Source: Candidatus Margulisiibacteriota bacterium (GTDB taxonomy: Bacteria > Margulisbacteria > Marinamargulisbacteria > JBFWNS01). Taken from it: 10,560 nucleotides of DNA. Shown here in pieces: positions 2,067 to 7,652 of this stretch. The stretch spans positions 1-10,560 of the forward strand of contig JBFWNS010000011.1 of assembly GCA_050250935.1 (NCBI GenBank), read 5' to 3'. Position 1 is the stretch's first letter, and each line of letters opens with the position of its first letter. The position numbers were made by a program, and so were the translations under genes. Below the pieces are notes generated by a model. The model ran no database searches, was not told the DNA's origin, and saw only the letters and a list, made by a program, of their open reading frames with translations.

Positions 2067-2097
2067 TTGACAAACGCTGGGGATTTCAAAATACTAT
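2067..2097 (+). promoter_or_regulatory. Sigma70-type promoter for the precursor/MNIO operon
   Basis: Perfect -35 TTGACA at 2067-2072. Candidate -10 is AATACT at 2090-2095 (17-nt spacer) or TACTAT at 2092-2097 (19-nt spacer). RBS AAGGAG at 2115-2120. Confidence 0.6.
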
Positions 2098-2125
2098 ACG
2101 CATCCCATTTTTTTAAGGAGTTCTT

Positions 2126-2425
2126 ATGAACAAGAGTTTGATGTCTGCTGCTGTTGCTGGCATTTTGTTGACAAGTGTTTCTGCTTCCTCAATTTTTGCT
2201 CAAGCTCATGCTGCCAAACCAGCAGAAGCCACTAAAAAGGTAAAAGCTGAAGCCAAGAAAGACTCTTGCAAAAGCAAAGAATGCAAAGATTGCAAAGAGA
2301 AATGCAAAGGCAAAGAAAAGTGTAAAGGTAAAGAAGGCTGCAAAGGCAAAGAAAAATGCAAAAGCAAAGCCAAAGAAGCTTGCAAAGGCAAAGAAGGCTG
2401 CAAAGCCCAAGACGCTAAAAAATAA
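2126..2425 (+). CDS. Secreted Cys/Lys-rich RiPP precursor for an MNIO (bufferin BufA2 / HvfA-like)
   Basis: Strong RBS. Sec-type signal peptide MNKSLMSAAVAGILLTSVSASSIFA(QAHA). Nine Cys, each followed by Lys, and four CKGKE motifs. Lies directly upstream of DUF692-DUF2063-DoxX. Confidence 0.85.
   Translation: MNKSLMSAAVAGILLTSVSASSIFAQAHAAKPAEATKKVKAEAKKDSCKSKECKDCKEKCKGKEKCKGKEGCKGKEKCKSKAKEACKGKEGCKAQDAKK
2303..2407 (+). repeat. In-frame ~18-nt tandem repeat TGYAAAGGYAAAGAA(AAR/GGC) encoding CKGKE(K/G)
   Basis: Units at 2303-2320, 2321-2338 and 2339-2356, a 24-nt variant at 2357-2380, another unit at 2381-2398 and a partial unit at 2399-2407. Confidence 0.9.
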
Positions 2426-2441
2426 GTTTTAGCACTTACCC

Positions 2442-2471
2442 GGCCCCTGGAAACAGGGGCCTTTTTATTTT
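2442..2471 (+). terminator. Intrinsic terminator between the precursor and the MNIO gene
   Basis: Perfect 8-bp stem GGCCCCTG / CAGGGGCC with a GAAA loop (2442-2461), followed by TTTTTATTTT. Confidence 0.85.
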
Positions 2472-2488
2472 ATCTGTGGTGGTGTCCC

Positions 2489-3346
2489 ATTCAAAATCAA
2501 TCTAGACGTCCTTTTCTTGGCTTCGGGCTAGGCCTTCGGGCAGAGCATTACGACGATTTATTGTCGGATACTTACGCGGGCCAAGTGGATTGGCTTGAGA
2601 TTATTTCTGAAAATTTTTTGTTTGAGGGTACCCGATCACAGTATTACTTGGATCAATTTCTTGAGCGTTATCCCATTATTGCCCACGGCGTTGGGCTTTC
2701 AATTGGCAGTGCAGATGCCCTAGACTGGGACTATTTGGCACGGCTCAAAAAATTAATTCACAAACTCGATCCGCCTTGGGTTTCGGATCATTTGTGTTGG
2801 GGACACGTCAAGGGACAGCATTTTCATAATCTGATGCCCTTGCCCTATACAGCCGAAACAGCTCGCTATGTGGCAGGCCGGATTGCCATTGTTCAGGACT
2901 ATCTTGAAAAACCGTTTATTATTGAAAACGTGTCCAGTTATGCCGAATTCAAAAGCTCGGAAATGACAGAATGGGACTTTGTGGCCCAAATTTTGGACCA
3001 GGCCGATTGTGGGATGTTATTTGATGTGAACAATGTTTATGTTTCTGCGGTTAACCATGAGTTCTCGCCAGACACCTATTTAAATGCCATCGATCCAAGC
3101 AGGGTGTATCAGTTTCATTTGGCTGGGCACCGTCGCAAAGAGAATTTTATTTTGGATTCCCATGATTCTCCGGTGTGTCGGGATGTTTGGGACCTGTATG
3201 CCAAAGCCGTTGCTCGTTTTGGCGACGTCTCGTTAATGATCGAGCGTGATGATGACATCCCCCCTTTAAGCGAGCTGTTGATCGAGCTTAACGAAGCCAA
3301 GACCATACACCATGAAACCAGAACCAAAACCGCCAGCAGAGCTTAA
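2489..3346 (+). CDS. DUF692 multinuclear non-heme iron-dependent oxidative enzyme (MNIO; BufB/HvfB/MbnB family); start uncertain
   Basis: Motifs WLEIISENF, HGVGLSIGS, VSDHLCW, LMPLPY, IENVSSY, FDVNNVYVSAVNH, HLAGH, DSH and IERDDDIP. The family N-terminus PFLGFGLGLRAEHY (2510-2551) is in frame upstream of the ORF-track TTG at 2561. The start is tentatively placed at ATT 2489. Confidence 0.93.
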   Translation: MQNQSRRPFLGFGLGLRAEHYDDLLSDTYAGQVDWLEIISENFLFEGTRSQYYLDQFLERYPIIAHGVGLSIGSADALDWDYLARLKKLIHKLDPPWVSDHLCWGHVKGQHFHNLMPLPYTAETARYVAGRIAIVQDYLEKPFIIENVSSYAEFKSSEMTEWDFVAQILDQADCGMLFDVNNVYVSAVNHEFSPDTYLNAIDPSRVYQFHLAGHRRKENFILDSHDSPVCRDVWDLYAKAVARFGDVSLMIERDDDIPPLSELLIELNEAKTIHHETRTKTASRA

Positions 3347-4079
3347 AGACATCCAAGAATGGATGGCCGATGTTGTGTCCTTTGATCAACCGCTTACTGT
3401 GGCAATGCGAACCGCTGCCAAAAAACGCATTACCGCCACATCCAAACAAAGTGCAGAAGACCGCATCGAAATCTACACCAACGATTTTTGGCCACGCTGT
3501 TACGAATCCCTAGCCGAAGATTTTCCTTCCTTGGTTGCGTTGTGGGGAGAATCCGACTTTGACGTATGGATGACACGATACATAAAAGCCCACCCCTCGG
3601 TTTCTTATACCTTGTATTATCTGGGCCAATTTCTTCCTCACTTTTTAGAAACCCATTATCACGAAGCGAATCGAGAAATTGTCCTTGATGAAGCGCTTTA
3701 CGACTGGGCCTGTAGTTGGGCCTATTTTGCGGATGCAAAACCTTATTTTGATCCCGAGCAATTGTCTGAGGAAGCAAAAGCCCAAGTGGCCACGTTGCCG
3801 CTGATTCTTCAACCTCATGTCACCTTACTTTCTTCTAGAAGCAAAAGTCGTATTGTCTATCGAAACCGAGAGTTTAAGGTTTGTTGCGAGACCATTCCGA
3901 AACAATTTCTTAAAATTTTGGCCTTGCTGGATCAGTCTTTGAGTCTTGAAGCAGCATTAACAGATCCTTCAATAACCGGTAAACTGGGACGACTTAATCT
4001 GGAAAAATGGTTTGCGTATGCCATTGGCTCTGGATGGTTCCAGATGCCCCCAATACCCACCAAAAGGAGTCCGCAATGA
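3312..4079 (+). CDS. DUF2063 MNIO partner protein (BufC/HvfC-like, peptide-recognition partner)
   Basis: L..IQ.W at the N-terminus and RIEIY.N......SLAEDFP.L....G...F......YI.AHPS.S.TL...G.FLP.FL, as in DUF2063. Overlaps the MNIO gene by 35 nt. Confidence 0.85.
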   Translation: MKPEPKPPAELKDIQEWMADVVSFDQPLTVAMRTAAKKRITATSKQSAEDRIEIYTNDFWPRCYESLAEDFPSLVALWGESDFDVWMTRYIKAHPSVSYTLYYLGQFLPHFLETHYHEANREIVLDEALYDWACSWAYFADAKPYFDPEQLSEEAKAQVATLPLILQPHVTLLSSRSKSRIVYRNREFKVCCETIPKQFLKILALLDQSLSLEAALTDPSITGKLGRLNLEKWFAYAIGSGWFQMPPIPTKRSPQ

Positions 4080-4537
4080 TTCGACATTTACTGGCCAAAA
4101 CCTTCCATCTGATTTCTGCTCAACGAAGCTATTGGCTCCTCTTGATTCGCGTTACTCTGGGGATTATTTTTATTCAGACAGGATTTGGCAAACTGACCCA
4201 TTTGGATGCTACAACGGACTTTTTTCAAAGTATCGGTGTTCCTTTTCCCTTTTATAACGCTATTTTGGCTTCTTCGACGGAATTGATTGGCGGGGCTTGT
4301 TTGATTCTTGGTTTTTTCACCCGAATGGTTGTGTTGCCCCTATCGTTTACGATGGTAGTTGCCATTTTTACAGCCTTACGAGGCGATATTCATAGCCTTT
4401 CCGACTTTGTTCGTCTTCAAGAATGGGACTACATTTTGATGTTTCTCTTGCTCTTTTTTACAGGAGCCGGGAAGTTCAGCTTGGACAACATTTTGGCCAA
4501 GTGGTTTAACCTTTACCCTGACGACTATAAGGTTTAG
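4076..4537 (+). CDS. DoxX family membrane protein (BufD-like)
   Basis: LLIRVTLGIIFIQTGFGKL, F.SIGVPFP, ELIGG.CLILG.FTR and GAGKFSLD. Start moved to ATG 4076, which forms an ATGA overlap with the DUF2063 stop and follows AAGGAG at 4064-4069. Confidence 0.92.
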   Translation: MIRHLLAKTFHLISAQRSYWLLLIRVTLGIIFIQTGFGKLTHLDATTDFFQSIGVPFPFYNAILASSTELIGGACLILGFFTRMVVLPLSFTMVVAIFTALRGDIHSLSDFVRLQEWDYILMFLLLFFTGAGKFSLDNILAKWFNLYPDDYKV

Positions 4538-5385
4538 CCTTTAACCATCTTTCGAAAAGTTGTTGGACTTTGGCCCGTGTTGCGTTTAAAGTACCGACAA
4601 AATTGGTCAGCATCTTCAAATTGCAAAGCAACGGCGATGCTAGACAGGGGCTTATCGGTGTGTGCCAGTTCTCGTTTGGCTTCCAAAATCAATCGACTTC
4701 GAATCCAGTCTCCGACCGTTCGTCCGGTTTTTTCTTTAACCACTTGGTTCAAATGTTGTGGGGAAACAAACATGAGTTTGGCATAATCCGACACCTGTTG
4801 GTGGGTCTTAAAATAAAAAGCCAGTAACTTCTTGAATTGCACCACTATATCTTCATTGGGTTTTTCAGGGCGAACTTCTCTGCACAACCGCGAAAGTTTA
4901 AGCAGCATAATTCTTAAATACCCAGCCAATAAATCCAATCGATCGGGTTCATCATTTTTAAATTCGAGTTCCATTTCTTTTAAAAGGGCCTGAAAAGGTG
5001 CTGGTGTGTCCAAATCCAAATAGGGGAGGGCATCAAAAATCGAAAAAAAAGCCAAGGGCGAAAAGTCCGAGCTTGGCCAAGCTTTTAATAAAAATTCTTC
5101 GGAAAACGAGATAAAAATCCCTTTAACACCCACTGGTTTTCGCCAAAAGTGTACTGCCCCTGGATACATAAAAAACAAACGGTTGTGACGAAGGGGATGA
5201 TCTTCAAAATCGATTACCCGAACGCCAGTCCCTTCCAGGATCCAAATAATCTCATAAAATTTCACGGTGTGGGGACGCGGATGTTGTACATAGGGATTTG
5301 AATCATCAAAAAAATGAATATCAAACACAGGCGCTGTGTGTAGCCAAGACGGATTTAAATGATGCTGAATCTCTTGCCTCGCCAT
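4534..5385 (-). CDS. AraC family transcriptional regulator
   Basis: N-terminal cupin-like domain (PH...FYEIIWI.EG.G...IDF..H, PGAVH). C-terminal double HTH (VSDYAKLMFVSPQHLN..VK..TG, EAKREL......IA..L.F.D...F.RYFKR.TG.SP..FRK). Confidence 0.93.
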   Translation of the reverse strand: MARQEIQHHLNPSWLHTAPVFDIHFFDDSNPYVQHPRPHTVKFYEIIWILEGTGVRVIDFEDHPLRHNRLFFMYPGAVHFWRKPVGVKGIFISFSEEFLLKAWPSSDFSPLAFFSIFDALPYLDLDTPAPFQALLKEMELEFKNDEPDRLDLLAGYLRIMLLKLSRLCREVRPEKPNEDIVVQFKKLLAFYFKTHQQVSDYAKLMFVSPQHLNQVVKEKTGRTVGDWIRSRLILEAKRELAHTDKPLSSIAVALQFEDADQFCRYFKRNTGQSPTTFRKMVKG

Positions 5386-5390
5386 AAGGT

Positions 5391-6461
5391 TTATCCTGCG
5401 TTAATCTGACTGACGATATACTGGGCTGTGTCCACAGTGGGTTTAAATCGCATCAGGGCTTGTCGTTGGGCTTGCCAAGGCTCTGGCTCTAGAGTTCGAA
5501 GAACAGCGTCTGTAACGCCGTCTACGGTAACCTGTCCCACCATCTCTGGAACCAAGGCTTCATTGGCAATGCGATTGGGTAGGGCATAAAACCGTTTTTG
5601 CTTGGCCAGGAACCAAACGATTATTTTTTTAACCAGTAGACCCAACCCTGGAATTTTTCCAACGAGGCCAGCCAGGCCGTCCAAAATAATCAGATCAACA
5701 CGGTTGGTGGGAACCAGAATCAGCATGGGCAAATGCATGTACATGGCCTCGGCTGTGTTTGTTCCCGGCAGCGAAACCAATAAATCCGATTCGGCCATGG
5801 TGGCCAAAGAATCGCCTCGGCTAAATGATACGTGTCCCAGCTGATGTTCAAACTGAAGCCGATTTAACTGGGTTTCAGAAATAAACGGAGAAACCATAAC
5901 CGTGGTTTTAAGTTCTGGACGACGGTGGTTAAGTTGTTGAATGACCTCGCCAATAAAGGGTAAAAAAGCTTCAAAATGGGGAGGCCTAGAACCACAAAAA
6001 AACAAAATATGCTGATGCCGTTCTGGACCTTTTTGAATGGCCTTAAGCGCCACGCGTGCAGCCATTAAATCCCCAATTTTTTGTTTAAAAAAGGTTTGCT
6101 TAAATCCCATGCCCAAAGACCGTTGATGTTCCGTATAGCCAAAGACTGGATAGCCCCACTTAAGCCCAAACAATTGGCTATAAAAGGGATCTCCACCCAA
6201 ATACAACACAGCTCCATCTGTACCCCATTTTTTAGAACTCAACAACAATTTGAAGGTTTCTTTGGGCGAAAAAACCTCGGAAACACCTTCGATGGCTTGT
6301 GCCCGCGCTTTCTCTTGGCCGCTGGCATATTGGCATGGGGTTAAGGCGACAATAACCCTGGCATCGGGGCGGCTGGCTTTAAATAAACTCACCACCGGCT
6401 CCACCCAACTGGTCAACTCTCCGGGGGAATTCGATTGAATGATCAGGGTAAACGGCGTCAT
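5391..6461 (-). CDS. Lipid-A-disaccharide synthase-like (LpxB-related) GT-B glycosyltransferase
   Basis: SNSPGELTSWVEP N-terminus, YLGGD, GSR, PGTNTAE and ALPNRIA....VPE. These resemble the divergent LpxB-like proteins of Cyanobacteria and other diderm Terrabacteria. Confidence 0.7.
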   Translation of the reverse strand: MTPFTLIIQSNSPGELTSWVEPVVSLFKASRPDARVIVALTPCQYASGQEKARAQAIEGVSEVFSPKETFKLLLSSKKWGTDGAVLYLGGDPFYSQLFGLKWGYPVFGYTEHQRSLGMGFKQTFFKQKIGDLMAARVALKAIQKGPERHQHILFFCGSRPPHFEAFLPFIGEVIQQLNHRRPELKTTVMVSPFISETQLNRLQFEHQLGHVSFSRGDSLATMAESDLLVSLPGTNTAEAMYMHLPMLILVPTNRVDLIILDGLAGLVGKIPGLGLLVKKIIVWFLAKQKRFYALPNRIANEALVPEMVGQVTVDGVTDAVLRTLEPEPWQAQRQALMRFKPTVDTAQYIVSQINAG

Positions 6462-7576: not shown

Positions 7577-7652
7577 GCGCCTGTAGCTCAGTGGATAGAG
7601 CGTTAGACTCCGGATCTAAAGGTCGTGGGTTCGACTCCCGCCAGGCGCACCA
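7577..7652 (+). tRNA. tRNA-Arg (anticodon CCG)
   Basis: Acceptor stem GCGCCTG/CAGGCGC, D-arm GCTC..GAGC, anticodon stem TTAGA/TCTAA with loop CT-CCG-GA (CCG at 7610-7612), T-loop TTCGACT and encoded CCA; 76 nt. Confidence 0.97.

Follow-up and report, generated by a model that had tools for sequence, protein, structure and literature searches.

A six-residue Cys-Lys repeat in the precursor of a bufferin-type MNIO cluster from Candidatus Margulisiibacteriota

The locus described here encodes an unnamed variant, with a six-residue repeat, of a known family of copper-defence peptides; it is not a new system. It lies in the window, i.e., the whole stretch of 10,560 nucleotides that was analysed, and its first gene encodes a small precursor in which nine cysteines are each followed by lysine. 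By homology with characterised relatives, this protein is probably the precursor of a four-gene bufferin-type cluster, in which an MNIO and its DUF2063 partner would oxidise most of the nine Cys to 5-thiooxazole and the product, after predicted Sec export, would act as a flexible multivalent periplasmic copper buffer. The sequence-only reading of the locus had proposed a Cys-Lys-type precursor for an MNIO (DUF692), and the comparisons below support this assignment. The pathway type is already known; the precursor architecture is missed by current Pfam and NCBIfam models.

Organization of the cluster

The features of the locus are as follows.

2067..2095, + strand: sigma-70-like promoter candidate (TTGACA, 17 nt, AATACT; 10 of 12 consensus positions, a consensus match only)
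2115..2120, + strand: Shine-Dalgarno sequence AAGGAG of the precursor
2126..2425, + strand: precursor gene (bufA-like), 99 aa, nine Cys-Lys, from the ORF translation
2126..2212, + strand: predicted Sec signal peptide, from hydropathy (a hydrophobic h-region preceded by a basic n-region, with AQA/AHA motifs that would place the cleavage after residue 27 or 29)
2267..2404, + strand: Cys-Lys core, residues 48-93 (irregularly spaced C48/C53/C56, followed by hexads at 60, 66, 72, 78, 86 and 92)
2442..2471, + strand: GC hairpin (8 bp) with U-tract, intrinsic-terminator-like, between precursor and MNIO
2489..3346, + strand: MNIO/DUF692 maturase, BufB type (PF05114; NF050167 343.1, cut-off 310)
3312..4079, + strand: DUF2063 partner (PME type 1, BufC-like), 255 aa (PF09836 51.7 bits, cut-off 27.2; alignment)
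4076..4537, + strand: DoxX membrane protein (BufD/HvfX-like; PF07681; NF050144 82.1, cut-off 80, scanned from 4079 without Met)

The genes thus run in the order precursor, MNIO, DUF2063 and DoxX, with the hairpin after the precursor, and the last three overlap at their ends. This corresponds to bufABCD, the order given for the core of bufferin clusters (PMC12452194; the cited papers are drawn on throughout for their accessible parts). As in captophorin/bufferin-type MNIO-PME1 clusters, the PF05114 enzyme belongs to the BufB/HvfB group, the Cys-rich precursor is shorter than 200 aa and lies directly 5' of it, and DUF2063 (PME type 1) follows directly 3' with a length close to the expected 250-260 aa or so. 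The window genome holds a single PF05114 gene and a single precursor of the Cys-Lys type.

No copper regulator and no copper gene is present in the window, in which the cluster is flanked by pyrE/pyrF and an AraC gene. The latter (AraC-family regulator, 4534-5385, - strand) is convergent with DoxX, and it is followed by an LpxB-related protein (5391-6461, - strand) and a tRNA gene (7577-7649, + strand), the sole hit of an Rfam scan of the window; no link of any of these three to the cluster is shown. Hairpins resembling that at 2442..2471 are present in several relatives; the segment 2423-2530, folded as a whole, is no better than its shuffles (z -1.1).

Properties of the precursor

The precursor ORF is a real gene, as indicated by its Shine-Dalgarno sequence, the sigma-70-like site and homologues in the same context. 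The counts of the sequence-only reading are confirmed: the nine Cys at residues 48, 53, 56, 60, 66, 72, 78, 86 and 92 each have Lys as the next residue, 28 Lys stand against 12 acidic residues (3 Asp and 9 Glu), and past the signal peptide there is neither an aromatic residue nor Asn, the sole Phe (residue 24) and the sole Asn (residue 2) both lying within it. When residues 30-99 were shuffled, Lys followed all nine Cys in 9 of 200,000 shuffles, which excludes chance for the Cys-Lys pairing given the protein's own composition. The exact unit CKGKE(K/G) occurs four times, at residues 60, 66, 72 and 86, and TRF reports an 18-nt period with 4.3 copies at 2292-2369. C53 and C56 form a CxxC preceded by acidic residues, which is uncommon in the family. 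Synonymous differences between the repeats, which had been read as a sign of selection on the peptide, are real; across the four exact hexads they come to just three sites, of which a single unit holds two, and they are therefore weak evidence of selection when taken alone. The polycationic character is likewise real in the window member (net charge about +14 to +15, pI 9.5) but is not a trait of the family, whose median is +7 and whose 10th-90th percentile range is +1 to +10.

AlphaFold gave no confident fold (pLDDT 48, from a 19-row alignment and thus weak evidence), in line with what would be expected of an unstructured array. The Atlas structure rows are all below TM 0.5 and the feature matches below 0.9, so that these are leads only. 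Two depth-2 contigs of RNA run X7 are almost identical to the precursor, which is not evidence of expression. Four other RNA contigs of that run, covering window positions 2292-2405 at depth 3-15, come from other organisms and carry related Lys-rich repeats.

In run X4, from a study different from that of the possible source run, a related strain of approximately 93% identity differs by nine gap letters and a loose end that matches window 2266-2273 (one contig, depth 5), and it appears to have lost one 18-nt unit, which would leave eight Cys for nine. All four loop bases of its hairpin are changed while the stem is intact. The X4 loop is the reverse complement of window 2450-2453 on the same stem, i.e., a micro-inversion.

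Comparison with existing models and named systems

Consistent with the expectation that the precursor would match no existing family, none of the models compared (BufA1/DUF2282, BufA2 and HvfA) is reached at cut-off. Against BufA2 (NF050166) it scores 22.1 bits with a cut-off of 60, compared with 85 and 88 for two canonical BufA2 controls, and none of 15 phylum relatives reaches 60 either. The HvfA-type models give no match at E up to 1 and there are no EGKCG repeats; the BufA1/DUF2282 Pfam model does not match. Matches to collagen-like and EntB/EntC models, far below cut-off, were rejected as low-complexity noise.

Among the closest named systems is Bufferin 2 (BufA2-BufB2-BufC2 of Caulobacter vibrioides; Buf_6/12Cys; NF050166, NF050167), with which the window shares gene order, the predicted Sec signal, a BufB-class MNIO with the Cys-Lys Asp, the DUF2063 partner and Cys-Lys at six-residue spacing. 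However, the Buf_6/12Cys pattern of six or twelve Cys with an outer disulfide and a small fold is absent from the window precursor, which has nine Cys, no flanking Cys pair and no confident fold. Additionally, the hexad places Asp or Glu at the Asn and Gly positions of Buf2, its repeat number is variable, and the signal-peptide motif differs. Bufferin 1 (DUF2282, BufA1) shares the cluster type and the likely chemistry but is a folded four-Cys peptide, and its sigma/anti-sigma control is absent from the window.

The Lys-Cys group of oxazolin/HvfA, fontiphorin and gonophorin (Buf_EGKCG) resembles the window in its multivalent low-complexity Cys array, signal peptide and combination of MNIO, DUF2063 and DoxX. 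The window repeat is a 6-mer with Cys-Lys, whereas theirs is the 5-mer EGKCG, and the window MNIO fails the HvfB model and has neither a second Arg nor a Phe following the catalytic Asp. FonBC left substrates with Lys after Cys unprocessed (PMC13097082).

Published sequences of this kind are found in the Cys-Lys or CK-style captophorin category of Gadgil et al. 2026 (PMC13097082), whose Data set S2 includes hexad-only ORFs (for example in rows WP_083270191.1, WP_129046240.1, WP_220165998.1 and WP_348217638.1), most of them marked CK-style, and a chimera (row of WP_091056841.1). In the accessible text of that paper the hexad is neither named as a type nor tested, and 'Margulis' is absent from its two spreadsheets. 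PMC12452194 reports hundreds of unassigned precursors with 1-18 Cys; its two spreadsheets, apparently accession lists alone, contain no match to the motif. PMC8692599, as far as it is accessible, describes the six-Cys type only. Across the literature covered, from which most subscription journals were absent, no paper was found that names or tests either the hexad type or the clusters of this phylum, and the accessible parts of the papers found report no hexad-type peptide as modified or metal-bound.

The hexad family and its linkage to MNIO genes

A single-sequence search gave 3 matches, and a 19-row profile was then used, which yielded 261 proteins at 90% clustering (best 120 of 261 taken) and 928 at 50% clustering (best 150 of 928 taken), with source names that include Verrucomicrobiota, Bacteroidota and Bdellovibrionales. 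Regular expressions divide 240 proteins from the matches listed into 77 hexad-only, 71 with hexads and a Buf2-like core, 80 with a Buf2-like core only and 12 others. The hexad consensus is C-K-G-K-D-G. Spacing of six dominates in the hexad-only, chimera and Buf2-like-core classes, with 285 of 438 Cys-Cys spacings equal to six. The hexad-only proteins have 3-13 Cys, odd in 33 and even in 44; together with the apparent eight Cys of the approximately 93% identical strain, this removes the earlier argument that an odd Cys count points to modification or metal ligation.

Within the phylum, PF05114 is found in 25 of 146 genomes, of which 19 are BufB-like (50-62% identity), one is divergent and five are weak or partial. 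Directly upstream of 18 of the 19 BufB-like genes is a Cys-Lys precursor, of the hexad type in 16 (3-10 Cys) and with one or two short NKCKGxNxCK motifs in two; at the nineteenth locus the hexad gene is on another contig. No canonical six-Cys BufA2 lies beside any of the 19. In genome G033, a ten-Cys hexad precursor with a CxxC start like that of the window (L182:1501-1851) is off the MNIO contig, and the MNIO (L002) has no upstream precursor; it is possible that this MNIO acts on the precursor in trans.

The association was also recovered by the DNA motif of the repeat alone. This search found 62 metagenome loci (59 distinct ORFs), many of which are kin, so that the counts are not independent events. 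An MNIO lies within 2.5 kb in 46 of them, as would be expected if homologues occur mostly beside DUF692 genes: 39 within 400 nt downstream, one at 603 nt and six at about 1.5 kb, behind DoxX, ECF sigma and anti-sigma-like genes. The other 16 are cut within 600 nt (six), have DoxX only (seven) or have neither (three, two of these unlike precursors). Hexad precursors with no nearby MNIO include L114, L115 and L148 (DoxX only, with more than 2.4 kb downstream covered), L118 (neither), L182 and L186. The L186 gene has a degenerate Cys core beside DoxX, followed by a peroxiredoxin-like ORF, and at L154 the precursor adjoins DoxX with no MNIO in the stretch covered. The hexad precursor at L015:1138-1410 has a Cys straight after the hydrophobic region and is likely a lipoprotein form. 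The MNIO loci labelled Rickettsiella/Aquirickettsiella (L042, L045, L046, L053, L054, L057, L063, L081 and L100) carry another precursor type that is not Buf2-like, CETPCxPPC...CNTCKCMSRCKQV, with a His/Arg-rich tail. The repeat motif was found in no stretch (0) of the viral contigs.

The nearest MNIOs in genome contigs (best 80) are mostly paired with canonical Buf2 precursors. In a quick tree with midpoint root, the 18 full-length MNIOs of the phylum form one side of a branch with SH-aLRT 99; a record labelled UBP8, which we take to be Margulisbacteria, falls within the MNIO branch of the window. Hexad-only and chimeric precursors are intermixed within another branch of the quick tree. On a 46-row subset, hand-chosen from 123 distinct rows with class labels fixed before the first tree, the AU test rejects a single clade for the hexad-only MNIOs (p 8e-17 with LG+G4, 3e-8 with a mixture model). 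Since these MNIOs are not one clade, we infer that hexad-only types arose by repeated loss of the Buf2-like core or by precursor exchange.

The chimeras join the hexad to Buf2-like cores, which indicates that the hexad is Buf2-derived and not HvfA-like, and the scores of non-proteobacterial Buf2-like cores against BufA2 (31-38, four scored) form a gradient toward canonical BufA2. The description of the window array as HvfA-like thus holds for its multivalent, apparently unfolded architecture only; ancestry and enzyme are of the Buf2 type, and the resemblance is by convergence only. The suggestion of a new subfamily is similarly narrowed, in that the sequence type is unnamed but hexad-only ORFs have already been published as CK-style and their MNIOs are not one clade.

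A motif in the signal peptide

The hydrophobic region of the precursor contains a conserved motif, AA[AIVLM][AS]G[LIF], at residues 8-13. The pattern, written after the sequences had been seen, is present in 46 of the 53 precursors found by motif whose N-terminus could be read, in 4 of 99 signal-like ORFs of the window genome and in 1 of 65 proteobacterial Buf2-type precursors. PMC12452194 offers preliminary evidence that the sequence recognised includes the Buf1 signal peptide, and the same peptide was dispensable on overexpression (PMC11626156). No shared upstream operator is evident by eye in 16 upstream regions.

Type and translation of the MNIO

The MNIO retains all conserved motifs and has the marks of the Cys-Lys group of Gadgil et al. 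2026, namely an Asp that follows the catalytic Asp, GLGLR without a second Arg next to it and a precursor with several Cys-Lys. In that paper Phe after the catalytic Asp denotes Lys-Cys MNIOs and Asp denotes Cys-Lys MNIOs, and it is inconsistent on which group keeps the second Arg (PMC13097082). Compared with 3BWW, a solved structure of the Lys-Cys type, the window enzyme has GLGLR-A for RR and ERD-D for ERD-F, and its score against the HvfB model (NF003818) is 265.4 with a cut-off of 360. Asp follows the catalytic Asp in 112 of 127 full-length MNIOs, and Phe in none of the 127. A methanobactin identity was rejected, as MbnB (TIGR04159) scores 71 bits against 325 and the partner is DUF2063, not MbnC.

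The start codon of the enzyme is unusual. In the MNIO frame there is no ATG, GTG or TTG before the conserved GLGLR, the only in-frame candidates being ATT 2489 and CTG 2474 or 2447, and the window MNIO alone among 141 loci (overlapping loci included) has none of the three within 30 codons of the N-terminal motif. A run of three GTG codons at 2476-2484 is out of frame and ends in a stop. Translation of the MNIO in the window genome is therefore uncertain, and it is conceivable, though unlikely, that in this strain the enzyme is barely translated or its start broken, the peptide being mostly unmodified and serving as a metallothionein-like or thiol/disulfide buffer balanced by DoxX. The hairpin that precedes the MNIO, the precursor and DoxX pairs with no MNIO at L114, L115, L148 and L186, and the failure to find DsbB in the window genome would fit such a buffer. 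However, ATT 2489 stands where relatives start, with GGTG 7 nt upstream, and infC of the window genome also has an ATT start; the MNIO motifs are all kept, and the gene is gap-free over 2478-3749 in a strain of approximately 95% identity. Furthermore, DoxX is dispensable for Buf1, for which structure and copper binding are established (PMC11626156). An AUU start at ATT 2489 is likelier than a damaged start.

Proposed mechanism

For the modified peptide, the steps may be drawn from characterised relatives. The hairpin at 2442..2471 may cause the precursor message to outnumber the enzyme message. The BufB/BufC pair would bind the precursor in the cytoplasm, perhaps via the conserved signal-peptide motif, and with O2 would remove 4 H from each Cys; the Lys next to that Cys would presumably face the Asp just after the catalytic Asp (D254-D255, numbered from ATT). 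Cleavage of the signal peptide is predicted after A27 or A29, which would leave about 70 residues with no confident fold. With about one Cu for every two rings, a chain could hold at most about four Cu, and chains would probably be cross-linked to each other, as in fontiphorin. The hexad may be viewed as a simplified, repeated form of the C-x5-C spacing with Cys-Lys that the Buf2 core shows, in which case the repeat number would set copper capacity.

The chemistry of the relatives is consistent with these steps. In Caulobacter Buf2 the central Cys are each -4 Da, with absorbance at 305 nm, and buf2 is copper-induced (PMC11626156); PMC12452194, in its accessible part, reports the Buf2 modification with no structural assignment. 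All characterised MNIO-PME1 products are described as 5-thiooxazole-containing and copper-binding, and fontiphorin takes up to four Cu with aggregation (PMC13097082). HvfA has six modified Cys and one N-terminal disulfide, with about one Cu(I) per pair (PMC11252979).

Host context and alternative functions

The window genome encodes an aa3-type oxidase operon (haem-copper oxidase) and a multicopper oxidase domain, which indicates that O2 and copper are in use. No P-type ATPase of any kind, no DsbB and no CusA over cut-off was found in it; at 96% completeness these absences are not proven. A search for a complementary distribution of the cluster and CopA-type ATPases found none: a P1B ATPase over cut-off is present in 7 of 19 cluster-bearing genomes, and in many genomes of the class neither occurs. 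A tie to aerobic life is not discriminating: a COX1-family gene is present in 18 of the 19 cluster genomes, but also in 45 of 55 of the class.

These data bear on the possibility that the same ring chemistry does another job, such as copper storage or delivery for the aa3-type oxidase, handling of another soft metal, or a role in oxidative stress, in place of copper detoxification. Such a role, to which we assign a small chance, would agree with a host that has the two oxidase functions and no P-type ATPase found, with a promoter that resembles a housekeeping sigma-70 site and with the existence of MerC-Buf2 fusions (L106; PMC12452194). The lack of a complementary ATPase pattern stands against it, as does the behaviour of characterised relatives, which are induced by excess copper and protect against it (PMC11626156).

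It is very improbable that the MNIO makes another modification on the hexads, such as an oxazolone-thioamide or cross-links. MNIO chemistry is diverse and the phylum enzymes have a branch of their own in the quick tree, but the MbnB, ChrH and ApyH models give 45-79 bits against cut-offs of 325-600, and oxazolin/HvfA itself has been reassigned to 5-thiooxazole (bioRxiv 2026.06.05.730506). A cationic surface or antimicrobial peptide with incidental MNIO adjacency is scarcely credible despite the high charge and pI of the window member, since charge is not conserved in the family while Cys spacing and MNIO linkage are.

Implications

Beyond the copper-buffer assignment, a wider reading is put forward tentatively and is rather less probable. 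The hexad-only proteins might constitute a fourth captophorin architecture, unfolded copper sponges without disulfides, derived on several occasions from Buf2-like cores, with a capacity tuned by gain and loss of 18-nt units even between strains and with AA[AIVLM][AS]G[LIF] as a leader read by DUF2063. In a streamlined aerobe with neither P-type ATPase nor DsbB, such a peptide could act as the principal copper buffer of the envelope, at a dose governed by the terminator and an AUU-started enzyme.

The hexad precursor, in a hexad or short-motif form, is the only precursor type found beside BufB-like enzymes in the phylum. The natural series from six-Cys core through chimera to pure repeat bears on two questions raised in the cited papers, how one MNIO may process many successive Cys and whether the signal peptide may double as a recognition leader, and the hexad precursor offers a simple substrate for the proposed Cys-Lys specificity rule.
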